64,000 nt of DNA from the sequence record NC_052663.1; one strand, given 5' to 3'. Both the position numbers and the translations under genes were made by a program. The stretch is from Escherichia phage VEcB. Shown here piece by piece: positions 12,187 to 54,104 of the stretch (its first letter is position 1; each line of letters starts with the position of its first letter). Under the pieces are notes generated by a model. The model saw only the letters and a program-made list of their open reading frames with translations, did no database searches and was not told the origin of the DNA.

Positions 12187-12999
12187 TTACTTAGTCAAAT
12201 GATCTTCTATCATTTTTATGAAAGCAGGATTGCTAAAAGCATCTGCTGCCTTTTCTCTGTAAACAAAGACTCCTCTATCTTCGTAAAGAAGAGTTTCTTC
12301 GTAATTAATTCCTGGGTTAACAACAATCATTTTTGTACCCATATTAAGTGCAGGGAATAATTCCCAATTAAAATTGATAACTTGGTTTGAACATCCTACT
12401 ACAACAACCAAATCTTGCATGGTCAAAGTATCAAACAAGTGAGCCATATCTGCATACAAAGGTGCAGCCTCACCAAAAAATACAACATTAGGCTTCACCC
12501 AGTTATAATCATCTATGTTTATACTATTGTAACCAATGTCTACCAGTGTTTTGTAATCTCCAGGATGCATACGGTAAACTACTTCATGGAGATACCCGTG
12601 CACGTGAATAACAGAATCCCTGTCCACACCTGCTCGCTCTAGTAGATCATCGACGTTTGTTGTCAAGTTTACTACTTGGTTAGGATATTCCTTAAACCAC
12701 TTTGCTATTTGAATATGTGCAGCATTAGGTTGTACATCTTTAAGCTCAACACGTCTTTTGTTATAAAATTCGTGTGTTTTGGCATACAAATCCATACCGT
12801 TCTCGTCTACACCACCGACCACTGGAAGATCTGGTGATGTTCTCACACGATAACCTGCTTGGAAAGCTCCAATATCGCAGATCTCTTCTAAATCCCATTC
12901 TTCCCATAGGGCACGACCACTATCTGTGTCTGTTCGGAATGTTCGAATCCCACTATCTGCACTTAAACCAGCTCCACTAACAAAAATTACTCTTCGCAT
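12187..12999 (-). CDS. Sir2-family NAD-dependent protein (deacylase/ADP-ribosyltransferase/NADase fold)
   Basis: GAGLSADSGIRTFR, PNAAH, TTNVDDLLERAG, HVHG and VFFGE motifs; no zinc-ribbon cysteines. Confidence 0.7.
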   Translation of the reverse strand: MRRVIFVSGAGLSADSGIRTFRTDTDSGRALWEEWDLEEICDIGAFQAGYRVRTSPDLPVVGGVDENGMDLYAKTHEFYNKRRVELKDVQPNAAHIQIAKWFKEYPNQVVNLTTNVDDLLERAGVDRDSVIHVHGYLHEVVYRMHPGDYKTLVDIGYNSINIDDYNWVKPNVVFFGEAAPLYADMAHLFDTLTMQDLVVVVGCSNQVINFNWELFPALNMGTKMIVVNPGINYEETLLYEDRGVFVYREKAADAFSNPAFIKMIEDHLTK

Positions 13000-13556
13000 T
13001 CAATATCCTCTTCGTAATCATCATCCCAAGAAGATGCGTCGTAACGCTCTTCCTCTTCGAAATCCCAGTTAATTTCTACCCCAAAATCTAAAAACAATTT
13101 AACAATGTTTTCTGTAGAGTAGTATTTATCATAAGCATTAGCTAATTCCCAATATTTATCACTCAATTTTTTATAAGTAGGATCATTATAGTCATAATCC
13201 ACTTTATAACCATAGTCATACATCTCTTGTTCAGCTTTAAGCATAGCTTCTGGTGTAAGAAGATTAGGGAACGGACGATTTCTTTCTTTTAACTTAGAAG
13301 CGATCCAGTTTGCAACATTCGCCACTTCACCATCTCGATTATCACCTAAACAACTTGCATAATCTCCATCTTCGTAAGTGCCTAAATCCCCACTTACTTC
13401 ATGTACAATAGATGAATACGATCCACACGTTTCACAATCTGAAAAAGTGTCTACTGTTGTAATATCAATAGATAAAACTGGTAAAGCCATAGCTTCTTTC
13501 ACACAAGCCTCCTCATATAATAACATGTCATCAAAACCCATATATCCTCCAGACAA
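12987..13556 (-). CDS. hypothetical highly acidic protein
   Basis: 189 aa, D/E-rich especially at C-terminus. Confidence 0.45.
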   Translation of the reverse strand: MSGGYMGFDDMLLYEEACVKEAMALPVLSIDITTVDTFSDCETCGSYSSIVHEVSGDLGTYEDGDYASCLGDNRDGEVANVANWIASKLKERNRPFPNLLTPEAMLKAEQEMYDYGYKVDYDYNDPTYKKLSDKYWELANAYDKYYSTENIVKLFLDFGVEINWDFEEEERYDASSWDDDYEEDIECEE

Positions 13557-18560: not shown

Positions 18561-19133
18561 TTAATGTGTTAATGAAACTGCATAACTAAACACAGGTTCA
18601 GATATTACATCGGCTACAGTAATAAAAACGTCTTCGTCTTGAGTTGTTTCTACACGACATACAGTTACACCATTCACCACGAATTCAACGCAATGTGGAA
18701 TATCTTCACAAACGAAGGTAGTGTAAGTAACACCCAAAGCATCATACAAAGATTTAACAGTGTTTGCAAGTGCCGCAGTTTCTTCTTTTTCTGAGACAAT
18801 GAATGCTGTAACAATAAGATTGTTTGCATAGTTTAAACTGTCCTCTATAGCCAATGATTTACAAGGTAGTAATGCAAAATATTTACCTGGTTTAATCAGA
18901 CCTGCTTCCCATTGATTCAAAATTGCCTGGGATGGTTTAGTAATATAAAACAGATTTTCACTTGGGTTATCAATATTACTTCTGGCGATACAACGTGAAG
19001 GATTATTAATATCAAATACATGATCAAAATCTACACAAACAGGTAAACTGAAAGGTGTGAATTTTTTATCTAATAATCCTATGGCTGATAATATGTTTGC
19101 TGTGCTTATCTTCCCGTTAAAAGCTAAACGCAT
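18561..19133 (-). CDS. hypothetical protein
   Basis: 190-aa ORF. Confidence 0.45.
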   Translation of the reverse strand: MRLAFNGKISTANILSAIGLLDKKFTPFSLPVCVDFDHVFDINNPSRCIARSNIDNPSENLFYITKPSQAILNQWEAGLIKPGKYFALLPCKSLAIEDSLNYANNLIVTAFIVSEKEETAALANTVKSLYDALGVTYTTFVCEDIPHCVEFVVNGVTVCRVETTQDEDVFITVADVISEPVFSYAVSLTH

Positions 19134-42434: not shown

Positions 42435-42755
42435 TTAATCCTTAAGACGTTCATTTAAATCTGCAATAACATCACCTAAATCTTCACATTCCAGTGTTAA
42501 CTCTGAAACTTGTCCACTCAAATAACAAACCTCTTCATTTAGATCTGAAATAATGTTTTCTAATGAATCTACTTGGTCATCATACGAACGTTTTGTTTCT
42601 TCAAGTTCTTCCGTAAGATCATTAATCAAACTGAGCAAAGATAAGATATAGCCGTCTCCTGTCTCGTTCCTCCACTCACTTCCGTAGCGATAAATAATAA
42701 TTTCACCATTATCGACTACTGTAAAATACTTACCTTCACCAGAATAAATTTCCAT
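42435..42755 (-). CDS. hypothetical protein
   Basis: 106-aa ORF. Confidence 0.4.
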   Translation of the reverse strand: MEIYSGEGKYFTVVDNGEIIIYRYGSEWRNETGDGYILSLLSLINDLTEELEETKRSYDDQVDSLENIISDLNEEVCYLSGQVSELTLECEDLGDVIADLNERLKD

Positions 42756-42764
42756 ACGCTCTCC

Positions 42765-43169
42765 TTATTGTAGCTTAAGTGAACTGCGAAGACGTTTCTC
42801 TTGCTGATCACGAATATGTTGTGGAACCTCATGAATTGAGTCGTTACCGTGCCTATTTTCAACAACTAAAGAGATAACTTGATAACCAAACTCTTCGGCA
42901 AGAGTAAAATAAGGTTTAAGTTCTTTCTCTGTGGTTGAAGTGTTAGAGACAATAATCTTTTTAATATTAGATGCCATAGCATCACGAACAATACTCTGAC
43001 ACCATGCGTGTGCTTTACCTACATTTTCTGGCTTCCAATCGTAAGCCCCGTTTTCTGTGTAATGATATTGATCTGCCTCACAGATAGGCCAATAACCTTC
43101 AGAAATAATTTCTGCTACTGTAGATTTACCTGCACCTGAAACACCACGTAAAATGATAAGTTGTTTCAT
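42765..43169 (-). CDS. P-loop kinase (polynucleotide-kinase-like)
   Basis: Walker A GVSGAGKST in a 134-aa protein directly downstream of the ligase-like gene. Confidence 0.55.
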   Translation of the reverse strand: MKQLIILRGVSGAGKSTVAEIISEGYWPICEADQYHYTENGAYDWKPENVGKAHAWCQSIVRDAMASNIKKIIVSNTSTTEKELKPYFTLAEEFGYQVISLVVENRHGNDSIHEVPQHIRDQQEKRLRSSLKLQ

Positions 43170-44102
43170 TTAGCCTCCAAAGAAGTTTTCTATTTCTTTA
43201 CGTCGCTCTTGTGGGTCTAGAGCAGCCCATTGAACCTTCGTAAAGTTATTTCGAAGCCATTCTAGCAAAGTATAATATTCTTCGTCAACAATTTGTTTAG
43301 CATTTTTTGGGTTGTCCCAAATCATATCCCACTTCTTATTGCCACCACGCATAAGGAACTTCTTAGCAAGATAGTATGGTGACTTAATCTTTAAGAGTAA
43401 GTTAAACGGATAGTTTGTTTCACGAACAACAAAGCCTTCGTGTCTACAATGTTTAGACATTTCAACAACATCTGAAAATTTAATCATCGGATAAACTTCA
43501 GGACGTTTAAATTTTGTAATAGATGCAATCCCATCAAGAACACCTTCAGGTAACATGAAACTTGTCCCATCCAGGTTTTGAATTCTTGCTCCAATTAAGT
43601 ACGCGCCTGGTTCTTCTTCGACAATATGTGGATCAGAAGGATCGCAGATTTCAAAAAGAAAAGTTGCTTTTGCACTTTCTGTCCACTTAATGAAATACTC
43701 TATGTCGTCACACTCGGAAACAATACGGTTCTTTGCCATAATTGCAAAATCTGATTCTAGGCTCCCTGTTGTTGATACAACAAGTTTCCCTTTGTACACA
43801 CCTACAGATGCCATAAAACCGTTTACTTTACGGACAGCATCTACAAGTTGGTCTGCTGGAAGATCTGTACCATTTTCAAAACGATTAAAGATTTTAGTAA
43901 AAGGCCAAATAACAACATTGTCTTCTGAGTCAACAACCAACCCACGACAATCTAGAAGGCGTTTGTCTACGTCCCACAAATTGTCCCAGAATACATTGTT
44001 TTTGTATTTAAGTACAGCAAGACCAGCATACTCTCCAGATTTAACTTCTTTTTTATGCACTAAACCTTTTGCAATCAGGTCATCACAATTGAACTTAGCC
44101 AC
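43170..44102 (-). CDS. RNA-ligase-like covalent nucleotidyltransferase
   Basis: motif I KVNG, motif IV EGFVVR, motif V LKIK. Confidence 0.5.
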   Translation of the reverse strand: MAKFNCDDLIAKGLVHKKEVKSGEYAGLAVLKYKNNVFWDNLWDVDKRLLDCRGLVVDSEDNVVIWPFTKIFNRFENGTDLPADQLVDAVRKVNGFMASVGVYKGKLVVSTTGSLESDFAIMAKNRIVSECDDIEYFIKWTESAKATFLFEICDPSDPHIVEEEPGAYLIGARIQNLDGTSFMLPEGVLDGIASITKFKRPEVYPMIKFSDVVEMSKHCRHEGFVVRETNYPFNLLLKIKSPYYLAKKFLMRGGNKKWDMIWDNPKNAKQIVDEEYYTLLEWLRNNFTKVQWAALDPQERRKEIENFFGG

Positions 44103-44103
44103 C

Positions 44104-44655
44104 TTAATCTCCTTTGATTATCTTATGATGATCTACAACAACAATATCACGCTTATCCATAATAGAGATGATTTCGTCAAAATGCAAGATTTTTCCGTGT
44201 ACGTCCCAACCAACATCCAACATTTTCCCATACAAATGATCAGGGAATGATCCGTGAGAGTGCCCGTGTAGCATGATTGATCCATGCCCTTGTTTATTCC
44301 AGGCAGCCATAGGGTAATGACTTAAGACGAAGAACAGTTTCTGATATTTCACTTCGTCATAATATACCACTTCACCATACTCTGCAAGCACTTTTCTGTG
44401 CTTACTGTAATCATGGTTCCCAACACAGTAAGTAATATCCCCTTGGAGACGGGAAGCAATCTTACGGGTATCTTCTTCAGTCCCGAAACAGAAGTCCCCA
44501 AGATGGTACATTTTTACTCCTGGTGTTGTGGCACATTTGTTCCATGCTTCGATCAGTGCTTCTGTCATATGCTCCATATCTTCCCACGGGCGATATTCAG
44601 GAGCAAACTCTCGAATACGTTTGTGCATAAAATGCAAATCACTTGTAATAAACAT
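44104..44655 (-). CDS. calcineurin-like metallophosphoesterase
   Basis: SDLHF, GDFCFG, GNHD, HGHSHG motifs. Confidence 0.7.
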   Translation of the reverse strand: MFITSDLHFMHKRIREFAPEYRPWEDMEHMTEALIEAWNKCATTPGVKMYHLGDFCFGTEEDTRKIASRLQGDITYCVGNHDYSKHRKVLAEYGEVVYYDEVKYQKLFFVLSHYPMAAWNKQGHGSIMLHGHSHGSFPDHLYGKMLDVGWDVHGKILHFDEIISIMDKRDIVVVDHHKIIKGD

Positions 44656-45017
44656 TAGTATAATCCCTCGCTGAATAGTTCACTGTCGTGACCATTTCTT
44701 TCATAGTTAATTTGTTTGGCGTTATCTGCAATGATATAAGCATCTTTGCGACTCCACCAATTATAATACTGATCAATAAACCCTTGATTATCAGGTAAGC
44801 AAAACAGTTTATCGATCAATCCTGCATCTTTTAAAACATTAAGTTGTGCAGATAGTACAGGATTTGCATGCCTAACACAAGGAATAATTAACTCTTCGCC
44901 ATTGTTGAGAATATACTTATTCGCAGCGCAGACTATAACACGTTGAGCATAGTGATCCTCACCAATCCAGGTAAGAGGTTGGTAACAAATATCATGTTGA
45001 TTAGTAGCGCACATCAA
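44655..45017 (-). CDS. hypothetical protein
   Basis: 120-aa ORF. Confidence 0.45.
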   Translation of the reverse strand: MMCATNQHDICYQPLTWIGEDHYAQRVIVCAANKYILNNGEELIIPCVRHANPVLSAQLNVLKDAGLIDKLFCLPDNQGFIDQYYNWWSRKDAYIIADNAKQINYERNGHDSELFSEGLY

Positions 45018-47547: not shown

Positions 47548-48441
47548 ATGAAAGTTAGTATTCTACATGGTGTTGACTGTTATGTTACTGATGTAGACGT
47601 TAAAGTCTTTACATTCTCTGGTGGAGAACAACATGTTCAACTAGACACGAATCTATCAGGTTTCAATCATGCTACAGACAGAATCTTACTCTCTTTAGAA
47701 GTAAGATCTGCTAAAGACTTGATGACTTTGGTTATGACTAAGAATGCATTGGACAATATGCTATATCATAAACCATATTGTGTTGATTTGCTCATGTTGT
47801 ATGTGCCATATGCACGACAAGACAGAGTGTGTGAACCTGGGGAAGCATTCGGAGTTAAAGCATTTGCTTCTATAATTAATTCATTAAATTTCTCACGTGT
47901 TATCGTTGCTGATCCACATAGTGATGTTACTCCAGCGGTGTTTGACAGACTCTGTGTAATACCTCAAGAAGAGATTGCTTACGAAACTTTAAAGTGGAAG
48001 TTACGTATGGAGAATTTTGCTCTTGTTAGTCCTGATGGTGGTGCTCTTAAGAAAATATTTAAATTATCTAAGAAAATGTCTTTAGATGTGTTCTGTGCAG
48101 AGAAGGTTAGAGATACTGCAACAGGTGCTATTGTTCGTACAGACATTTCTGTACAGGATTTCAATAAGCGTAACCTGATGATCGTAGATGATATCTGTGA
48201 TGGTGGTAGAACTTTTATCGAATTGGCTAAAGTGCTACGTGCTCGTAACGCAGGTAAGATTGAGTTATATGTTACACACGGTATCTTTTCTAAAGGTCTT
48301 AAAGAGTTAAGTGAGCACTTTGACTGCATTCATTCTCTTAATGTGTGGGAAGATAACATCCAAGAAGATTCCGGTGTTCTTGTTAAGAATCAGTCAGATT
48401 TGCAACAACAAATTGTATCTCCATACGTGTGGAATTTTTAA
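47548..48441 (+). CDS. ribose-phosphate pyrophosphokinase family protein (PRPP-synthetase-like; candidate Adps of an NAD+ reconstitution pathway)
   Basis: YARQDR, VSPDGG, MIVDDICDGGRT motifs. Confidence 0.8.
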   Translation: MKVSILHGVDCYVTDVDVKVFTFSGGEQHVQLDTNLSGFNHATDRILLSLEVRSAKDLMTLVMTKNALDNMLYHKPYCVDLLMLYVPYARQDRVCEPGEAFGVKAFASIINSLNFSRVIVADPHSDVTPAVFDRLCVIPQEEIAYETLKWKLRMENFALVSPDGGALKKIFKLSKKMSLDVFCAEKVRDTATGAIVRTDISVQDFNKRNLMIVDDICDGGRTFIELAKVLRARNAGKIELYVTHGIFSKGLKELSEHFDCIHSLNVWEDNIQEDSGVLVKNQSDLQQQIVSPYVWNF

Positions 48442-48451
48442 ATAATAAATG

Positions 48452-48480
48452 TTGACAATAGGGAGTATGCTTAGTAAGAT
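48452..48480 (+). promoter_or_regulatory. sigma70-like promoter TTGACA-N17-TAAGAT
   Basis: consensus -35 and -10 directly upstream of the Nampt-like gene. Confidence 0.55.
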
Positions 48481-48512
48481 ACTCCCACACTAACAAACAA
48501 GGAGACATAACT

Positions 48513-50246
48513 ATGAATATTTTTGCACCTTTTGCTACTGATTGGTATAAGCCTGGTCACAAGCAGATGTACAACCAAAATACAAAACTCATTTTCTCTA
48601 ATTTAACTCCTCGTAATGATAAAAACTTTGCACACTATGCAGATCGTGAAGCACGTGGTGTCATTGTTTTAGGTATTCGTCGAGCAGTAACCGATGCTCT
48701 TGTAACTATGTGGGACGGCTTCTTTAAAATGTCTCGTAGTGCAGCAGTAAATAAATTTTATCGTATGTCTAAAAATGCATTAGGTGCTTCTGCTCCTTCT
48801 GCTGAATGTTGGGGAGAATTGCACGATTTAGGTTATCTTCCGCTAGAAGTTCGATCTCTGCCAGAAGGTGTTTTGTGTCCTATTGGTGTTCCTGTGTTTA
48901 CTGTGCATAACACTTTAGAAAAATTCTTTTGGTTAACTAACTATGTGGAAACACTATTGTCAGATGAAACTTGGAAGACAATGACTAACGCCACAGCAGC
49001 TTTTCAGTATAAGCGTATCGCTATGGCGTATGCGATGGCAACGTGTGATAACATTGATCACGTTAATTTCCAGTGTCATGACTTTAGTCTACGTGGCTTA
49101 AGCAATATCGAAGATGGTTATAAGAGTGGTATCGCTCATTTGGCATCTTTCACAGGAACAGATAATATTCTGGCTATTGAGACTGTGCATGATTATTATG
49201 GTATTGATTATGATCAGTTTGTTGCAGGTTCTATTCCGGCAACAGAACATTCAGTAGCAACGACTAACATTGGAGCTATTGTTGAAGATCTGAAGAAACA
49301 TTTCCCACATCTTAAAGATGATGTTGATGGGCTTCGTTATGTAGCAGAGAAAGAGTTTCTTCGCCGCTATATCGAAGAAATTGTTCCAGAAGGTTTTTGT
49401 TCATATGTAGCAGATTCTTATGACTACTGGGCTGTCTTGACTCGCATTCTGGTAGAATTGAAAGAATCCATTATGTCACGAAATGGTCGTCTTGTTATTC
49501 GTCCAGATTCAGGAGATCCGGTTAAAGTTGTTGCAGGATACAATGTTGAATCTTTTGATAACTATGAAGACCTTTTAAATAATGGTATTGCTCCAGCCAC
49601 TGAAGTAGTTCATTTGGCTGATGTTAATAAGTATTACAATGTTCTTCAGGATTGCAGTGTTGCTGATTGTATTGATGAAACTTATGAGATTCCTTATTGT
49701 GAAGCAGTAGGTTCTATTCAAATCCTTTGGGAAGTGTTTGGTGGTACTATCAACCGAAAAGGCTACAAGGTTCTTGATCAGCACATCGGTATGATTTATG
49801 GTGATTCTATTACTGTTGAACGAGAACACGAAATCTTACGCCGACTGAAGAAGAAAGGTTTTGCAGCTTCCAATATTGTATTTGGTGTTGGTAGTTATAC
49901 TTATCAGTTCAATACACGAGATACTTTTGGTTTTGCTGTTAAAGCAACAGGTAGTATCATCGGTGAACACGAAATTTTGGTAAGTAAGGAGCCTAAAACT
50001 GATCCTGGTAAACGTTCTGCAAAAGGTTTTATTAAGGTTGTTAAGGATACAAACGGTAAACTTTCTCTCGTGGATAATCTTTCTTTTAAAGATATTCAAG
50101 ATGAAGACAATGAGTTAAAAGTTATCTTCAGGGATGGTACGGTTATTACACCACAAGTAGAAGGACGTGATGAAACATTTACGGATATCCGCAATCGTGT
50201 TGATGTAGAGGTTCTTCGTACTATGGGAACCATCCAGGTTGACTAA
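48513..50246 (+). CDS. nicotinamide phosphoribosyltransferase family protein (Nampt/NadV-like; candidate Namat)
   Basis: 577 aa; N-terminal FATDWYKPGHKQMY and overall layout typical of the Nampt family. Confidence 0.8.
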   Translation: MNIFAPFATDWYKPGHKQMYNQNTKLIFSNLTPRNDKNFAHYADREARGVIVLGIRRAVTDALVTMWDGFFKMSRSAAVNKFYRMSKNALGASAPSAECWGELHDLGYLPLEVRSLPEGVLCPIGVPVFTVHNTLEKFFWLTNYVETLLSDETWKTMTNATAAFQYKRIAMAYAMATCDNIDHVNFQCHDFSLRGLSNIEDGYKSGIAHLASFTGTDNILAIETVHDYYGIDYDQFVAGSIPATEHSVATTNIGAIVEDLKKHFPHLKDDVDGLRYVAEKEFLRRYIEEIVPEGFCSYVADSYDYWAVLTRILVELKESIMSRNGRLVIRPDSGDPVKVVAGYNVESFDNYEDLLNNGIAPATEVVHLADVNKYYNVLQDCSVADCIDETYEIPYCEAVGSIQILWEVFGGTINRKGYKVLDQHIGMIYGDSITVEREHEILRRLKKKGFAASNIVFGVGSYTYQFNTRDTFGFAVKATGSIIGEHEILVSKEPKTDPGKRSAKGFIKVVKDTNGKLSLVDNLSFKDIQDEDNELKVIFRDGTVITPQVEGRDETFTDIRNRVDVEVLRTMGTIQVD

Positions 50247-50659: not shown

Positions 50660-50689
50660 TTGACAACATAGCTAGTTATTTGCTAAGAT
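50660..50689 (+). promoter_or_regulatory. sigma70-like promoter TTGACA-N18-TAAGAT
   Basis: hexamers upstream of 50720 gene and the first tRNA block. Confidence 0.5.
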
Positions 50690-50986: not shown

Positions 50987-50994
50987 TATTCAAG

Positions 50995-51070
50995 GTTCCA
51001 TAGCTCACTGACGAGAGCGCACACCTCATAAGTGTCGAGGGCAGGGATTGTAACCCTGGGGAACCACCAT
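50995..51070 (+). tRNA. tRNA-Met (anticodon CAT)
   Basis: acceptor GGTTCCA/GGGAACC, anticodon loop CTCATAA, CCA encoded; T-loop atypical. Confidence 0.6.
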
Positions 51071-51101
51071 TTAAAAGGAGGTGCTATGCATCTCCTATAT
51101 G

Positions 51102-51187
51102 CAAGTGTGGTGGAATTGGTGATACACATTGTGCTTAAAACGCAACGCTTAAATGATTGAGGGTTCGAATCCCTCCACTTGCACCAA
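51102..51187 (+). tRNA. tRNA-Leu (anticodon TAA), class II
   Basis: acceptor GCAAGTG/CACTTGC, anticodon loop CTTAAAA, long variable arm, T-loop TTCGAAT, CCA. Confidence 0.7.
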
Positions 51188-51189
51188 CG

Positions 51190-51295
51190 CCTAGTAGGGT
51201 ATTTGGTAATTCCGAGGCCATCAAAGCCTGAAAAATATGTTAGACCGTTTTGTCTAACTAAATACGAAATATGGTTCGATTCCATAACTAGGCTC
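51190..51295 (+). tRNA. atypical tRNA-like gene (about 106 nt; anticodon-like loop CATCAAA, TCA)
   Basis: perfect 7-bp acceptor GCCTAGT/ACTAGGC and T-arm TATGG-TTCGATT-CCATA but about 30 extra nt with a 7-bp extra hairpin. Confidence 0.35.
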
Positions 51296-51329
51296 CCGAT
51301 TTAAATAGTAATTTTTTAATAAAAATATC

Positions 51330-51358
51330 TTGACATTTACTTAGTTTTTTGTTATAGT
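51330..51358 (+). promoter_or_regulatory. sigma70-like promoter TTGACA-N17-TATAGT
   Basis: consensus hexamers immediately upstream of tRNA-like gene at 51370. Confidence 0.6.
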
Positions 51359-51369
51359 TACTATGAAAA

Positions 51370-51451
51370 CGGGGTGTATCTCACCTGACTTCTAATCAGG
51401 CGTTAACCGAGTAATTGGAGTATGCAGGTTCGAATCCTGTCACCCCGGCCA
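51370..51451 (+). tRNA. atypical tRNA-like gene (anticodon-like hairpin with TCT, no canonical D-arm)
   Basis: acceptor CGGGGTG/CACCCCG, T-arm GCAGG-TTCGAAT-CCTGT, CCA; hairpin CCTGA-CTTCTAA-TCAGG lies too close to the 5' end. Confidence 0.35.
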
Positions 51452-51469
51452 AAAAGTTTTAAAAACTAC

Positions 51470-51499
51470 TTGACAAGCAAGATAGTTTTATGTTAGATT
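51470..51499 (+). promoter_or_regulatory. sigma70-like promoter TTGACA-N18-TAGATT
   Basis: hexamers upstream of tRNA-Ser at 51515. Confidence 0.55.
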
Positions 51500-51514
51500 T
51501 AAAGTATGGTAACA

Positions 51515-51604
51515 GGAAGGTAGGGCGCAGCGGTGCGCAACCAGGTTTGAACCCTGGCCCATTGTAGCGATACGGTGATGGTTCGACTCCATTATCTTCC
51601 TCCA
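51515..51604 (+). tRNA. tRNA-Ser (anticodon TGA), class II
   Basis: acceptor GGAAGGT/ATCTTCC, anticodon stem-loop CCAGG-TTTGAAC-CCTGG, long variable arm, CCA. Confidence 0.7.
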
Positions 51605-51782
51605 AATTCAATGAGTGATTTTATGAATTATAAAACTATTGGACAGGTTGTTACCGGAGTTAAGATTGTAAATAATAAAGTTGTTTATGAGTATTCTAAT
51701 CTTCAACAATCTGAAGATGGTAAGAATATTCGTATGGTAAAAGCAGAACAAAAAGATTCCGGTTGTTTTGAATAATTAAAAA

Positions 51783-51868
51783 CGGTAGATTGGTGAAATG
51801 GTAGCCACAACAGTTTGCTAAACTGTCGTCGGAAACGGCGTGTAGGTTCAAGTCCTACATCTACCGCC
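51783..51868 (+). tRNA. tRNA-Ser (anticodon GCT), class II
   Basis: acceptor GGTAGAT/ATCTACC, anticodon stem-loop ACAGT-TTGCTAA-ACTGT, long variable arm, CCA. Confidence 0.7.
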
Positions 51869-51997
51869 AAGTTATCTTTAATGTAGCGTTGAGGCTACTT
51901 ACTTTAGCAGAGTAAACTTTCGGCAGATGGTGGCAGCCATTTTACCGATACCTCATAGTCAGTGCCGCAAACACTGGCTATTTTAAAGATAATTTAT

Positions 51998-52072
51998 ACA
52001 TCGTTAGCTTAGTTGGTAGAGCAAGGGCTTTTAACTCCAAGGTCGAAGGTTCGAATCCTTCACGATGTACCA
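51998..52072 (+). tRNA. tRNA, probably Lys (anticodon TTT)
   Basis: acceptor ACATCGT/ACGATGT, D-loop AGTTGGTA, loop CTTTTAA, T-loop TTCGAAT, CCA; anticodon stem weak. Confidence 0.5.
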
Positions 52073-52077
52073 AACAC

Positions 52078-52164
52078 GTAGGTATCGCATAGCGGCAATT
52101 GCTGGAGACTGTAAATCTCCTGCCCTTCGGGGCTTCGTTGGTTCGAGTCCAACTACCTGCACCA
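52078..52164 (+). tRNA. tRNA-Tyr (anticodon GTA), class II
   Basis: acceptor GTAGGTA/TACCTGC, anticodon stem-loop GGAGA-CTGTAAA-TCTCC, long variable arm, CCA. Confidence 0.7.
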
Positions 52165-52171
52165 AATTAAA

Positions 52172-52256
52172 GATGGATTGGCCTAGTGGTTGGGCGACGG
52201 ACTGTTAATCCGTGAACGAAAGTTCTAGCAAGGTTCAAATCCTTGATCCATCGCCA
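52172..52256 (+). tRNA. class II (long-variable-arm) tRNA with anticodon GTT
   Basis: acceptor GATGGAT/ATCCATC, perfect anticodon stem ACGGA/TCCGT with loop CTGTTAA, 15-nt variable arm, discriminator G, CCA. Confidence 0.55.
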
Positions 52257-52260
52257 AATA

Positions 52261-52329
52261 GTGCTTGTAGAGTTAATAGAAACCTCTAGAATTTTCTAGA
52301 ATTGTAGGTATCAAATCCTACCAAGCAAA
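52261..52329 (+). other. degenerate tRNA-like element
   Basis: 6-bp acceptor-like pairing and T-arm-like GTAGG-TATCAAA-CCTAC but palindromic TCTAGAATTTTCTAGA instead of anticodon arm, no CCA. Confidence 0.25.
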
Positions 52330-52335
52330 TATTTT

Positions 52336-52410
52336 GCTCCTATCGTATAACGGCTATTACGGTTGCCTTGTAAGCAACTTATCAGGGTTCGAGTCCTTGT
52401 GGGAGCACCA
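52336..52410 (+). tRNA. tRNA-Thr (anticodon TGT)
   Basis: acceptor GCTCCTA/TGGGAGC, anticodon stem-loop GTTGC-CTTGTAA-GCAAC, T-loop TTCGAGT, CCA. Confidence 0.7.
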
Positions 52411-52427
52411 ATTTTAACTCTAAAGGA

Positions 52428-52757
52428 GTGTATGTGACAGAAAAAGAGTTAGAGAAATATTTTAATATCAATGTTTTCGATGGTTTTGATGATATTGAAG
52501 ATGTTGAAAGATATTATGAAGTAGAGTTAGATAGGGATAACATTGTAATTCTTTCTGCCACTTATGATTGTGCATATTATGAAGGCGAATCTCACGTTTA
52601 TTTTTATGATATGAAAACATCTTTGTTTTATGAAGTACACGCATATCATTGTTCTTGTTATGGCTTAGAAGGTCAGTGGGAACCTGAAGAAATAGGTGAT
52701 TTGGACTTTACTATTGCATATCTAAACAGACGTGGTTCATCTACTATTTTAAAATAA
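52428..52757 (+). CDS. hypothetical protein
   Basis: 109-aa ORF (GTG start after AAGGAG) inside the tRNA cluster. Confidence 0.45.
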   Translation: MYVTEKELEKYFNINVFDGFDDIEDVERYYEVELDRDNIVILSATYDCAYYEGESHVYFYDMKTSLFYEVHAYHCSCYGLEGQWEPEEIGDLDFTIAYLNRRGSSTILK

Positions 52758-52771
52758 ATATCAAAAGCCTC

Positions 52772-52801
52772 TTGACAAAGGGGCTAATAATATGTTAGAG
52801 T
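52772..52801 (+). promoter_or_regulatory. sigma70-like promoter TTGACA-N18-TAGAGT
   Basis: hexamers upstream of tRNA-Gly. Confidence 0.5.
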
Positions 52802-52812
52802 AATATTGTTAA

Positions 52813-52887
52813 GCGGGTATAGTGTTAATGGTAGCATATGAGGTTTCCACCCTCCAGGTGCAGGTTCAAGTCCTGTTACTCGCTCCA
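52813..52887 (+). tRNA. tRNA-Gly (anticodon TCC)
   Basis: acceptor GCGGGTA/TACTCGC, anticodon loop TTTCCAC, T-loop TTCAAGT, CCA. Confidence 0.65.
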
Positions 52888-52986
52888 AGATTATTTAAAT
52901 GGAATCGCTAGAGAAAATTTCTCTTTTTGCTCATGGTTTTCTCCTTCAAACTCTAGCGGTTCTTTTTAAGTGATTTTTTAGTTTAT

Positions 52987-53061
52987 TGGAGATTAGCCTA
53001 GTGGGAAGGCAACGGCCTTTGAAGTCGTGATGACTAGGTTCGATTCCTAGATCTCCAGCCA
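52987..53061 (+). tRNA. tRNA-Gln (anticodon TTG)
   Basis: acceptor TGGAGAT/ATCTCCA, anticodon stem-loop ACGGC-CTTTGAA-GTCGT, T-loop TTCGATT, CCA. Confidence 0.65.
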
Positions 53062-53103
53062 ATTAATTGCATAGCATGAGTATTTCTCATTGGTTAAAAG
53101 GAG

Positions 53104-53469
53104 ATGCAAGTGAATTGTGAACATTGTGGTAGTGAGTTTACTTTGATAAAAGGTCATGGTGGACAAAACAGATTATACTGTTACACTTGTATTCCAGAAG
53201 GTTTAGATAAACAAGTACACACAAGATTACATCAAGAGCTTAGAAGAGAGCGATCTCATAGGATGAAACTTGATTTAGGTTGCAAAGTGTGTGGTTATGC
53301 TAAATGTGCAGTAGCACTAGAATGGCATCACCCAGAGGACGATAAGAAACACAATCCATCAAATGCAATCAAAAGATCTTGGTCTGCTTACTTAGAAGAG
53401 ACTGAAAAGTGTATCTTACTATGTGCCAATTGTCATAGAGAAGTACATGCTGGTCTTATACAGGTTTAA
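53104..53469 (+). CDS. HNH endonuclease (free-standing, inside tRNA cluster)
   Basis: CEHCG...CYTC zinc ribbon then WHHPEDDKKHN...CANCHREVH HNH motif. Confidence 0.7.
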   Translation: MQVNCEHCGSEFTLIKGHGGQNRLYCYTCIPEGLDKQVHTRLHQELRRERSHRMKLDLGCKVCGYAKCAVALEWHHPEDDKKHNPSNAIKRSWSAYLEETEKCILLCANCHREVHAGLIQV

Positions 53470-53470
53470 T

Positions 53471-53546
53471 CAGTGCGTAGCGCAGTTGGTAGCGTGGGAG
53501 CCTTGGACGCTTCAGGTCGCAGGTTCGAGTCCTGCCGCACTGACCA
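53471..53546 (+). tRNA. tRNA-Pro (anticodon TGG)
   Basis: acceptor CAGTGCG/CGCACTG, D-loop AGTTGGTA, anticodon stem-loop GGAGC-CTTGGAC-GCTTC, T-loop TTCGAGT, CCA. Confidence 0.7.
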
Positions 53547-53551
53547 AATTT

Positions 53552-53626
53552 GCAGAGATAGCTGAGACGGATTAGTGCTACCCTGAAAAGGTAGAAAGGA
53601 TGGATCGTTACCATCTCTCTGCACCA
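53552..53626 (+). tRNA. tRNA-Phe (anticodon GAA)
   Basis: acceptor GCAGAGA/TCTCTGC, anticodon stem-loop CTACC-CTGAAAA-GGTAG, CCA; T-loop ATCGTTA atypical. Confidence 0.65.
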
Positions 53627-53703
53627 AATAACACCATCCAAGGAGTAGACTTGGTTAACTGTCAATAGCACATTGAGGCTTCTTACAGTGGTGTACTTAT
53701 TAT

Positions 53704-53788
53704 GGCTAAGTGGTGGAATGGTATACACGATACGCTTAGAACGTATTGCCCCAAGGGATTGTGAGTTCGAGTCTCACCTTAGCTACCA
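53704..53788 (+). tRNA. tRNA-Leu (anticodon TAG), class II
   Basis: acceptor GGCTAAG/CTTAGCT, anticodon stem-loop ATACG-CTTAGAA-CGTAT, long variable arm, T-loop TTCGAGT, CCA. Confidence 0.7.
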
Positions 53789-53803
53789 AATTATTACAGA
53801 TTG

Positions 53804-53882
53804 TGCGGGATAGAGGAGTCTGGTCGTCCTCGCCAGTTTCATATGCTGGAGATCATCGGTTCGAATCCGATTCCCGCCTCCA
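53804..53882 (+). tRNA. tRNA with anticodon CAT (Met or lysidine-type Ile)
   Basis: acceptor TGCGGGA/TCCCGCC (1:72 unpaired), anticodon stem-loop CCAGT-TTCATAT-GCTGG, T-loop TTCGAAT, CCA. Confidence 0.6.
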
Positions 53883-53947
53883 ATAAATACCTCCCTTCTG
53901 GTGTAATGATTAAGTTACATTGACACTTCAAGGAAATCATAGCCGGG

Positions 53948-54023
53948 TAGATTTAAAAGAGTATGGTACTCAATATGGCTCCAAACCATAGATCAAGGGG
54001 TTCGATTCCTCACCTTGCTGCCA
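53948..54023 (+). tRNA. tRNA-like gene, possibly Trp (anticodon CCA); acceptor pairing not confirmed
   Basis: anticodon stem-loop TATGG-CTCCAAA-CCATA and T-loop TTCGATT plus CCA, but no 5' strand complementary to CCTTGCT found. Confidence 0.3.
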
Positions 54024-54028
54024 ATTAT

Positions 54029-54104
54029 TGTGGTATCGTACAGATGGTTAGTACACTCGACCGATAATCGAGAAACAACGGTTCGACTCCGTTTACCACG
54101 ACCA
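54029..54104 (+). tRNA. tRNA-Ile (anticodon GAT)
   Basis: acceptor TGTGGTA/TACCACG, anticodon stem-loop CTCGA-CCGATAA-TCGAG, T-loop TTCGACT, CCA. Confidence 0.65.

Follow-up and report, generated by a model that had tools for sequence, protein, structure and literature searches.

Canonical tRNAs fall into two classes according to the variable region between the anticodon and T arms, which is 4–5 nt long in class I and at least 10 nt, typically up to about 20 nt, in class II. Class II tRNAs and allo-tRNAs combine an extra stem-loop at this place with a cloverleaf, a 7-bp acceptor stem, D and T arms, and an elbow formed by G18 and G19 with the T loop; the canonical tertiary pair is U8:A14 (PMC7609411). 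In class II tRNAs for Ser, Leu and Tyr the discriminator base is G73 or A73. The criteria for selenocysteine tRNA are acceptor and T stems of 8 and 5 bp, a 6-bp D stem with a 4-nt loop, G73, and UCA with U33 (PMC7609411). Bacterial tRNA-Gly carries the identity set U73, G1-C72, C2-G71, G3-C70, C35 and C36, and the enzyme TacT recognises U73 and G71 (PMC9976931). The toxSAS FaRel2 recognises G1-C72, C2-G71, G4-C69 and R5-Y68 (PMC11559606). Phage tRNAs are established counter-defences (PMC11464382, PMC11555353, PMC12445682): T5 tRNA-Lys acts against PARIS, tRNA-Tyr against retron-Eco7 PtuAB and tRNA-Thr against P2 OLD (PMC11464382, PMC11555353, PMC12445682, PMC10264068). Phage T4 also encodes the species 1 and 2 RNAs, rnaC and rnaD, of 139 and 119 nt, which the T4 record lists only as small stable RNAs; rnaC contains a hairpin resembling a T arm.

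Escherichia phage VEcB, a phi92-like E. coli phage of the genus Justusliebigvirus, carries a tRNA-like gene that can be compared with these RNAs. We analysed 64,000 nt (the window) of its genome of about 147 kb. An earlier note on this DNA had described an oversized tRNA-like gene, and every feature it described is present in the sequence: a perfect 7-bp acceptor stem and a canonical T arm enclosing about 74 nt (exactly 74 nt from the acceptor 5' strand to the T stem), a D-like arm, a 4-bp stem whose loop has TCA in the anticodon position, and a 7-bp extra hairpin. Its start, given as 51190, has to be moved one base upstream to G1. The parts are listed in the table; the elbow residues G19 and C56 lie at 51206 and 51277. 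The minimum free energy fold recovers the acceptor stem, the extra hairpin and the T arm (z = -2.9, 1/200 shuffles). As the 3' end reads CCC, the terminal A of CCA would have to be added after transcription.

Features of the tRNA-like gene of VEcB and its surroundings (positions in the window)
Feature	Position	Strand	Remarks
Candidate sigma-70-like promoter for the ORF/tRNA-Met-like/tRNA-Leu/element transcript	50660..50689	+	TTGACA-18-TAAGAT, 10/12; consensus match only
Upstream tRNA-Leu(UAA)	51101..51186	+	ARAGORN, Rfam; CCA encoded, with 2 nt between it and G1
tRNA-like RNA gene, entire	51189..51297	+	109 nt counting U73 and CCC; model R1 97.6 bits, E 5e-21
Acceptor stem, 5' strand	51189..51195	+	GCCUAGU; 7/7 pairs with 51287-51293
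A8 and G9 (positions 8-9)	51196..51197	+	A8 with U14 in place of the usual U8:A14
D arm	51198..51213	+	Stem GGUA/UUCC including one U.U; loop UUUGGUAA with G18 G19
Shortened anticodon-like arm	51215..51229	+	4-bp AGGC/GCCU, loop CAUCAAA; UCA in anticodon position, A at position 33
Expanded variable domain	51230..51269	+	40 nt from G51230; 5' flank GAAAAAUAU, hairpin, 3' flank UAAAUACGAAA
Extra hairpin	51239..51258	+	GUUAGAC-CGUUUU-GUCUAAC, 7 bp, inside the variable domain
T arm	51270..51286	+	UAUGG-UUCGAUU-CCAUA, 5 bp; sequence, family covariation
Acceptor stem, 3' strand	51287..51293	+	ACUAGGC; pairs with 51189-51195
Discriminator U73, then CCC	51294..51297	+	U73 at 51294; invariant in 20/20 family sequences

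The element has homologues in about 100 phage genomes, distributed over Stephanstirmvirinae, four genera of Vequintavirinae, one N4-like phage and one metagenome contig; the named carriers are Justusliebigvirus, Henunavirus, Seunavirus, Mydovirus and one Ithacavirus. Pattern scans of IMG/VR, the JGI metagenomes and the GTDB genomes returned the same lineages, the metagenome contig (L015) as the one new carrier, and chance matches to ordinary tRNAs. No homologue was found in the E. coli genomes searched, and searches of Phapecoctavirus, also in Stephanstirmvirinae, were empty. We aligned 20 distinct sequences, which are 108–110 nt long with three gap columns and share about 70% identity overall. 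In the first alignment 99.2% of pair cells are paired, with both sides changed in 11/19 pairs; the covariation score was reached by 0/500 shuffles, and slid controls are only 32–50% paired. The model-fitted alignment gives 96.6% paired cells and two-sided changes in 14/24 pairs. The acceptor and T stems are paired in 100% of cells, with two-sided changes in 4/7 and 3/5 pairs, respectively (acceptor pairs 3–6 vary on both sides; pairs 1, 2 and 7 are constant throughout the family), and the D stem has them in 3/4 pairs. Other canonical features are kept: the 7-bp acceptor and 5-bp T stems, a UUCRAUU-type T loop and the G18 G19 elbow. A8 and U14 are invariant (20/20). Variation in the T loop is confined to C56 to A, which is coupled with G19 to U, such that the tertiary pair 19:56 is G:C in 11 sequences and U:A in 9. 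This strong covariation, including the 19:56 swap, argues that the RNA is selected and L-shaped. That the element is a genuine structured RNA gene is close to certain, and among the identities offered in the earlier note it is the tRNA-derived structured RNA that agrees with the covariation, the single copy per genome and the spread over phage families. Within their tRNA clusters, many enterobacterial phages carry this conserved gene for a tRNA-shaped RNA, which is almost never annotated.

In contrast to these tRNA-like parts, the variable region fits neither canonical class. It measures 39–40 nt in all 20 distinct sequences, inserted between the anticodon and T arms, with 8–11 nt of single-stranded, A-rich flank on each side of the hairpin. 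The flanks are conserved, as GAAAA(A)UA and AAUACAUAG, whereas the hairpin sequence is free: mean pairwise identity is 0.39, hairpins of at least three unrelated sequence types are found at this position, and all three modelled basal pairs vary on both sides across the family. Many members have a hairpin of low stability (-3 to -4 kcal/mol). By inspection, no pairing of flank with flank or of flank with D loop is conserved across the family, and the window shows no excess of sites for a trans-acting antisense seed: the complement of the 3' flank CTATGTATT occurs 16 times, with 24.8 expected. The insert is not readily explained as an intron, another of the identities considered, because it lies in the variable region, matches no Rfam intron family, and its excision would leave no variable loop. 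The element thus shares the cloverleaf, elbow and extra stem-loop of class II and allo-tRNAs but differs from them in the size of this domain, in A8:U14 and U73, and in an anticodon-like arm without U33 or a conserved triplet. Its place resembles that of the T4 species 1 and 2 RNAs, which come last in their tRNA cluster, immediately behind a tRNA gene. Their size and architecture are unlike those of the element, and the family covariance model R1 gave no match to rnaC or rnaD (L034 1909-2172), so that homology was undetected.

Comparison within the genus shows how the element is lost. In 25 of 54 Justusliebigvirus records, phi92 among them, a 126-nt deletion has removed it and left its first bases as a scar, in genomes that are otherwise 97–99% identical to those of their element-bearing congeners. 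These natural deletion variants include phages of the BASEL collection. The phages inny, muut, PaulScherrer and EmilieFrey carry the element, and JohannJBalmer and alia, like phi92, lack it. Phages can do without the element, and it has been transferred among phage families that are not related to one another.

The UCA triplet of VEcB raises the question whether the element decodes. The triplet at this position is UCC in 10/20 distinct sequences, UCA in 8/20, and ACC and GCC in one each. A or C, but never U, stands at position 33, and the arm has 4 bp and a 7-nt loop in 7/20 sequences and 5 bp and a 6-nt loop in 13/20, the 6-nt loops of the relatives being CAUCCA, CCUCCA, CCACCA, CAGCCA and CCUCAA. 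The outermost pair of the stem covaries between A-U and G-C. Near-identical copies differ solely or chiefly at loop positions 2, 3 and 5, making the loop a mutational hot spot: NDO71 and FENT2 differ in two loop bases and nothing else, KE22 and NINP13076 in two loop bases and one other. The loop CAUCAAA, on the other hand, is strictly conserved in four lineages (phi92-like phages, Henunavirus, UTK0002 and the metagenome contig), hinting at some constraint in these lineages. An odd arm is by itself no proof against decoding, since U33 is also missing from 7 of the 144 otherwise ordinary tRNAs examined in these clusters and shortened anticodon stems are known in working phage tRNAs (PMC12445682).

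These observations leave some room for a working tRNA that would suppress UGA in the phi92-like phages, Henunavirus and UTK0002, would read GGA or GGN as glycine elsewhere, and would evade anticodon nucleases through its odd loop. The invariant UCA in the 7-nt loop of the four lineages, the Gly/Cys identity elements on the acceptor end, and the records of Erwinia phages, in which the element is labelled tRNA-sup(tca), are in its favour; the label itself, however, is no evidence of stop-codon suppression. Against it, the triplet flips among UCA, UCC, ACC and GCC between near-identical orthologues, most arms have the 6-nt loop, the variable region is 39–40 nt long, and the same clusters already contain a canonical tRNA-Gly(UCC). 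We also looked for the in-frame TGA codons for which the earlier note had proposed a scan. Of the 66 long ORFs in the window, 54 end in TAA, 8 in TGA and 4 in TAG, and none of the TGA-terminated ORFs has an in-frame extension of at least 40 codons; TGA in VEcB is an ordinary stop. Because the gene is absent from 25/54 congeners, no essential gene depends on it. The opal suppressor suggested in the earlier note therefore finds no backing in an unconserved UCA, an arm that is non-canonical in all members, a normal TGA stop and a gene so often lost, and we consider a decoding tRNA of either kind unlikely. The degenerate loop probably indicates a tRNA mimic rather than a stop-codon suppressor, and on balance the element is likely to be non-decoding.

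The reading we favour, with a probability of about one half, is that the element represents an unnamed family of tRNA-derived RNAs of 105–109 nt that are dispensable, horizontally spread, non-decoding tRNA mimics. With the phage tRNAs that neutralise defences it shares the cluster location, an accessory and horizontally mobile nature, and altered anticodon arms. Those tRNAs, in contrast, decode, replace a depleted host isoacceptor and have a defined anticodon; as the element has no conserved anticodon, it would act as a mimic and not as an isoacceptor replacement. We propose that one transcript carries both the element and the tRNA ending 2 nt before it, that RNase P would cleave at G1, and that host enzymes would trim the 3' end and complete it to CCA. 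The RNA would then fold into an L shape and decode no codon, its acceptor end and elbow serving as the mimic.

The neighbouring genes are all on the + strand, and tRNA-Leu(UAA) and the element are probably co-transcribed. The relatives all have an ordinary tRNA (Thr, Ile, Ser, Arg or Leu) whose 3' end lies 2–5 nt ahead of the element. This constant position could also mean that the element is a decaying tRNA relic without a function in trans, kept where RNase P cleavage at its 5' end frees the upstream tRNA and its body stabilises the 3' end of the transcript. Its degenerate anticodon loop and its loss from half of Justusliebigvirus would agree with decay. However, an RNase P substrate requires only the acceptor and T arms, whereas this family, at about 70% overall identity, also maintains the D arm, G19:C56, A8/U14 and a variable domain of fixed length (39–40 nt) together with its flanks. 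In addition, the element has been retained after transfer into unrelated phage families, and most tRNAs of the clusters mature without such a neighbour. A relic is thus improbable.

What the mimic might imitate is indicated by the acceptor end. U73, G1-C72 and C2-G71 are invariant (20/20), and a survey of 144 ordinary tRNAs from these loci found the combination in tRNAs for Gly and Cys and in one for Thr, and in no others. CCA is encoded in 17/20 sequences, the relatives having UCCA and other phi92-like phages UUCA. C35 is present in 20/20 sequences, and position 36 is C in 12/20 and A in 8/20, A in VEcB. The element therefore shares G1-C72, C2-G71, U73, CCA and C35 with bacterial tRNA-Gly and tRNA-Cys, but it lacks G3-C70 of the Gly set and G34 of Cys: the 3-70 pair is C-G in 12 sequences, including VEcB, and A-U in 8, never G-C. 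Acceptor ends of the family often have G4-C69 and G5-C68, while in VEcB pairs 4 and 5 are U-A and A-U, compared with G-C and G-C in Gly/Thr-type stems. Global alignment of the element core with ordinary tRNAs gave low and mixed best scores (15–20 over 68 nt; Thr, Gly, Cys, Arg).

Most plausibly, such a mimic would compete for, or decoy, host proteins that recognise acceptor ends of Gly type. Candidates are defence or toxin enzymes with tRNA acetylation, pyrophosphorylation or cleavage activity: TacT/AtaT-type GNAT aminoacyl-tRNA acetyltransferases, toxSAS pyrophosphokinases, and nucleases of the tRNA tail or body. A decoy against tRNA-directed host defence is a tentative suggestion drawn from these likenesses, and it is not obvious that a decoy acting stoichiometrically could counter a catalytic toxin. 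More specifically, though this is rather doubtful, the element may be the first phage-encoded non-decoding tRNA decoy. Its impaired anticodon arm and large variable domain would prevent the L-shaped molecule from entering the ribosome, and its Gly-type acceptor end (U73, G71, G1-C72) would titrate or mislead defence enzymes that read the acceptor stem. Rapid change of the loop, and the presence of the element in some genomes but not in others, would then reflect an arms race. In recent work, phage tRNA clusters have come to be seen as counter-defence arsenals, with decoding tRNAs alone considered. In this element the features by which enzymes recognise a tRNA, the acceptor end and the elbow, are preserved, while its anticodon drifts. 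If it is a mimic or decoy, it would add an RNA-based mechanism to phage anti-defence and give the T4 species 1 and 2 RNAs a present-day counterpart that can be tested.

The same acceptor end may also be aminoacylated, with Gly or Cys. We asked whether the element could be an aminoacylated carrier of Gly or Cys type for a non-ribosomal transfer reaction, held off the ribosome by its anticodon arm and variable domain. The invariant U73, G1-C72, C2-G71 and C35, with C36 in 12/20 sequences, would suit such a carrier, and phage Mu offers a precedent in Mom, which uses Gly-tRNAGly (PMC13219725). VEcB moreover encodes small proteins resembling class II aminoacyl-tRNA synthetases and a YqeY-like protein. 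On the other hand, G3-C70 is absent, position 36 is A in VEcB, and no transferase partner was found. Mom homologues occur in 295 phage records, with none in the element-bearing genera among the matches listed or the leading organism groups, and tblastn (E <= 1e-3) detected no Mom homologue in the element-bearing phage groups; Mom-type Gly-tRNA-dependent DNA modification was therefore rejected. The distribution of the synthetase-like family phrog_4806 does not follow that of the element. The family occurs in Stephanstirmvirinae alone, including Phapecoctavirus, where searches for the element were empty, and was not found in Vequintavirinae; it thus does not co-occur with the element. A partnership with the YqeY-like protein was rejected as well. 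We consequently give this carrier role little credence and retain the non-decoding mimic as the preferred reading.

That the locus holds no + strand RNA gene is very improbable. A 41-aa ORF with a TTG start (51179-51304) spans it, several records annotate hypothetical proteins of 30–40 aa here, and a terminator scan reports the hairpin, followed by AUAUUUUUC, as a minus-strand intrinsic terminator. Single-base indels (108–110 nt, three gap columns), however, break any reading frame, the compensatory pairwise substitutions fit an RNA, and a hairpin of only -3 to -4 kcal/mol in many members, among neighbours that are all on the + strand, does not suit a terminator; indels, covariation and gene orientation together contradict both explanations. 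A tRNA-like domain of tmRNA type was likewise rejected, as ARAGORN calls no tmRNA and the 3-70 pair is C-G and not G3.U70. A selenocysteine tRNA, which the earlier note had also raised, can be dismissed: despite the loop ending in UCAAA, the long variable region and the RF01852 match, the stems are 7+5 rather than 8+5 bp, the D stem has 4 bp with an 8-nt loop instead of 6 bp with 4 nt, positions 73 and 33 are U and A in place of G and U, the triplet is unconserved, and the score is below the gathering threshold.

The family, although widespread (about 100 sequenced phages in three virus families), has been missed by standard tRNA finders and Rfam. ARAGORN makes no call at the element, neither tRNA nor tmRNA. 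In the Rfam covariance search that had been proposed as a check, the general tRNA model RF00005 gave no match even at E <= 10, and the expected tRNA-like signal was confined to a sub-threshold hit of the tRNA-Sec model RF01852 (29.4 bits, E 5e-4 in a 331-nt search; gathering score 47). The Rfam tmRNA model matches the 3' end of the adjacent tRNA-Leu only. Most genome records leave the element blank or name it as a tiny hypothetical protein. The family covariance model R1, in comparison, separates it clearly: element-bearing genomes score 97–130 bits with one copy each, and ordinary tRNAs reach at most 24 bits.

The oversized tRNA-like gene has every feature that the earlier note had listed, and the interval between its T stem and the 5' strand of its acceptor stem is exactly 74 nt; the start needed correction, as G1 lies one base 5' of the position proposed. 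The acceptor stem, extra hairpin and T arm are recovered in the MFE fold (z = -2.9; 1/200 shuffles). The element is not recognized as an ordinary tRNA: ARAGORN makes no call, and nothing is matched by the Rfam tRNA model at a cutoff as loose as E <= 10. The sole Rfam match is to tRNA-Sec, at a sub-threshold 29.4 bits (gathering score 47).

Coordinates of the element and of other features in the window (tRNA-type numbering for G1 and U73)
Feature	Position	Strand	Details
Element	51189-51297	+	U73 and CCC included
Acceptor stem	G1 at 51189	+	GCCUAGU/ACUAGGC, 7/7 paired
D arm			GGUA-UUUGGUAA-UUCC
Anticodon-like arm			4-bp stem AGGC/GCCU around loop CAUCAAA
Variable region	from G51230		40 nt
Extra hairpin	51239-51258		GUUAGAC/GUCUAAC, perfect 7 bp, inside variable region
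T arm			UAUGG-UUCGAUU-CCAUA, then U73, then CCC
tRNA cluster	50994-54104	+	houses the element; 15 ARAGORN tRNAs, all on this strand
tRNA-Met(CAU)	50994-51069	+	called by ARAGORN
Second odd tRNA-like gene	51370-51448	+	promoter-like site 51330-51358
tRNA-Gly(UCC)	52813-52887		canonical
Weak tRNA-like remnant	53942-54022	+	Rfam tRNA 22.9 bits at 53960-54020, sub-threshold
tRNA-Ile(GAU)	54029-54104	+	loop CCGAUAA, C33, otherwise ordinary
phrog_4806 paralogues	18561-19133 and 12987-13556	-	two, 190 aa, minimal class-II-aaRS-like; PaulScherrer 67015-68034 listed alongside
Polynucleotide kinase, RNA ligase, phosphoesterase	~42700-44700	-	gene trio; offset from PaulScherrer 138358-140248, BASEL annotation
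PRPP synthetase, nicotinamide phosphoribosyltransferase	47548-50246		NAD-salvage pair, upstream of tRNA cluster

The source is a phi92-like Escherichia coli myovirus (Justusliebigvirus, Stephanstirmvirinae). The 1.2-kb region around the element shares 98.3% identity with phage muut, and 51 phage records cover 80% or more of it. Using low-stringency blastn, we found the element at >=97% identity in 29 Justusliebigvirus records and at ~70% in six Erwinia phage records (Henunavirus) and one N4-like Salmonella phage (Ithacavirus UTK0002). Divergent queries added copies in Seunavirus (PVP-SE1, SSE121, GAP31, 4MG and others) and Mydovirus (Ro1, KB57, Mydo, DP and others), and one more divergent copy lies on a metagenome contig (L015). 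Pattern scans of IMG/VR and GTDB genomes revealed no further lineage, and E. coli genomes contain no homologue. In every genome, an ordinary tRNA (Leu, Thr, Ile, Ser or Arg) precedes the element, its 3' end 2-5 nt away. In some Mydovirus genomes, the two are separated by inserted HNH endonuclease genes (Ro1, L017 209-601; K18PH07C1, L027), with the ACCA-AU junction 5' of G1 kept. The element is hardly ever annotated: it is called tRNA-TERM or sup(tca) in two Erwinia phages, overlaid by hypothetical CDSs of 30-40 aa in a few records, and left blank in the carefully annotated BASEL phage PaulScherrer, where our model matches L038 46781-46889.

Sequence comparison indicates that the element is a selected RNA structure. 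In a MAFFT alignment of the 20 distinct family sequences (108-110 nt), the four tRNA helices and the tertiary pair G19:C56 are 99.2% paired; both sides have changed in 11 of 19 pairs, and none of 500 shuffles matched the covariation score. Sliding the partners by 1-3 columns as a control reduced pairing to 32-50%. Nine sequences carry U19:A56 instead of G19:C56, combining D loop UUUGUCAA with T loop UUAGAUU, an exchange that speaks for an L-shaped fold that includes a tRNA elbow. In a model-fitted alignment, which is biased towards structure, both-sided changes occur in 14 of 24 pairs, including all three modelled basal pairs of the extra hairpin. With the family covariance model, each genome yields a single copy, scoring 97-130 bits, and ordinary tRNAs score at most 24 bits. 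Among the identities suggested earlier, a tRNA-derived structured RNA is the one supported, by strong covariation, the single copy per genome and the spread across phage families. A small conserved protein-coding frame was rejected, as members differ by single-base indels.

The conserved and variable parts of the family are distinct. Invariant or nearly so are G1-C72, C2-G71, U7-A66, G10-C25, G26, the D loop UUUG(G/U)YAA, the T loop and U73, as well as A8 with U14, which inverts the canonical U8:A14. CCA is encoded in 17 of the 20 sequences; in phi92-like copies the end reads UUCA or UCCC. All members have a variable region of 39-40 nt, with conserved single-stranded flanks (5' GAAAA(A)UA, 3' (A/G)AAUACAUAG). 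The sequence of the hairpin between them falls into three or more unrelated types, with a mean pairwise identity of 0.39; by this comparison, its length and place are constrained and its sequence is free. The anticodon-like arm has a 4-bp stem with loop CAUCAAA in seven sequences (window type, Henunavirus, UTK0002 and L015) and a 5-bp stem with a 6-nt loop in thirteen: CAUCCA (nine), CCUCCA, CCACCA, CAGCCA or CCUCAA. No member has U33. The anticodon-position triplet is UCA in eight, UCC in ten, ACC in one and GCC in one; C35 is universal, and position 36 is C in 12/20 and A in 8/20. Change is concentrated in this loop: over 109 nt, NDO71 differs from FENT2 at two loop bases only, and KE22 differs from NINP13076 at two loop bases plus one G-C/G.U change.

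These features make it improbable that the element acts as a decoding tRNA. The triplet differs between near-identical orthologues, the loop and stem geometry of the arm is abnormal in every member, and even the largest class II arms are only about half as long as the variable domain. The clusters already contain a canonical tRNA-Gly(UCC), here and in PVP-SE1, and 25 of 54 Justusliebigvirus records lack the element. A33 and a 4-bp stem alone do not exclude decoding, since 7 of 144 distinct ordinary tRNAs of these clusters also lack U33 and shortened anticodon stems occur in working phage tRNAs (PMC12445682). The opal suppressor proposed earlier is not supported, given the changing triplet, the abnormal arm, the natural deletions and stop-codon usage: the 66 long ORFs of the window end in TAA (54), TGA (8) or TAG (4), and none of those ending in TGA extends in frame for at least 40 codons beyond it. 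A selenocysteine-like tRNA is likewise unsupported, because the element departs from the 8+5 rule, lacks the 6-bp D stem, G73 and U33 (PMC7609411), and falls below the Rfam threshold. Nor is an intron-containing tRNA supported, in view of how large the insert is and where it lies; no intron family matched, and excision would leave no variable loop. We therefore regard the family as non-canonical, probably non-decoding tRNA-like RNAs of phage tRNA clusters.

Natural variants show that the element is dispensable in culture. The 25 Justusliebigvirus records without it, phi92 included, carry a 126-nt deletion (phi92 L039 ~245-250, corresponding to window 51194-51320) that cleanly removes the tRNA-like gene and downstream spacer. 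It leaves the first bases of the element behind, with ACACCUA as the scar, indicating loss rather than insertion. These phages are otherwise 97-99% identical, so no essential gene depends on the RNA. The deletion variants open its function to direct testing. Among BASEL phages, JohannJBalmer lacks the element, and PaulScherrer and EmilieFrey have it.

The acceptor end of the RNA consists of U73, G1-C72 and C2-G71, joined in most members by G4-C69 and G5-C68. The first three occur together in only a few of the 144 ordinary tRNAs from the same loci: tRNA-Gly, tRNA-Cys and one tRNA-Thr. Bacterial Gly identity consists of U73, G1-C72, C2-G71, G3-C70, C35 and C36, and Cys identity of U73, G2-C71, C3-G70 and GCA; U73 and G71 are the features by which the Salmonella toxin TacT selects Gly-tRNAGly (PMC9976931). 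The toxSAS FaRel2 selects tRNAGly and tRNAThr through G1-C72, C2-G71, G4-C69 and R5-Y68 (PMC11559606). Phage tRNAs are established counters to tRNA-directed defences (PMC11464382, PMC11555353, PMC12445682, PMC10264068). The conserved enzyme-facing end and elbow, the drifting or diversifying loop, and the dispensability, patchiness within the genus and transfer between unrelated phage families favour an accessory tRNA mimic. Such a mimic would engage proteins that read the acceptor or elbow, most plausibly host defence or toxin enzymes. The closest conceptual precedent is T4 species 1 and 2 RNAs, which are stable, have no assigned function and lie at the end of a phage tRNA cluster, but are not homologous to this family.

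The element might instead be a substrate of the phage's own mini class-II-aaRS-like proteins, and the phage does encode phrog_4806 and a YqeY-like protein; however, phrog_4806 is limited to Stephanstirmvirinae and its occurrence does not follow the element. phrog_4806 is labelled 'histidyl tRNA synthetase' and has only a faint Pfam match, to tRNA-synt_2d; one paralogue adjoins a YqeY/GatB-tail-like protein. A 189-aa protein beside a sirtuin is also annotated 'aminoacyl-tRNA synthetase' (phrog_9509, no assigned function). The polynucleotide kinase, RNA ligase and phosphoesterase trio is a T4-like tRNA-repair set, which suggests anticodon-nuclease attack on these phages. A glycyl carrier for Mom-like DNA modification was considered as well. 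Mom does use Gly-tRNAGly (PMC13219725), but among the tblastn matches listed for Mom, none comes from a phage group that carries the element. For a pure processing signal, the D arm, elbow pair and fixed-length variable domain would be superfluous.

Several neighbours of the element are also unusual. The second odd gene has its own promoter-like site, a near-consensus TTGACA-17-TATAGT (11/12). Besides an acceptor stem, a T arm and an encoded CCA, it has an anticodon arm whose loop is CUUCUAA (Arg UCU), with ~5 nt in place of the D arm and a 20-24-nt insert after the anticodon arm; pairing is possible between UCUC, which follows position 9, and GGAG of the insert. It scores 38.6 bits with Rfam tRNA, receives no ARAGORN call and is annotated tRNA-OTHER or Undet in relatives. 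Matches covering 80% or more of the gene occur in 232 phage records, among them Felixounavirus, a jumbo phage and a Serratia phage, and in the Felixounavirus copy the stems of the acceptor, anticodon and T arms have undergone compensatory changes. The tRNA-Met(CAU), a 'hypothetical tRNA' in the phi92 annotation, has both elbow partners altered (T loop AUUGUAA, D loop without GG) and no match to Rfam tRNA even at E <= 10. In Seunavirus, the tRNA-Ile adjoining the element (L018, L022 and L032) has loop ACGAUUC or AAGAUUC, with C33 or A33. The weak remnant, which scores 14 bits with the family covariance model, sits at the place of an extra tRNA-Met in phage PATM.
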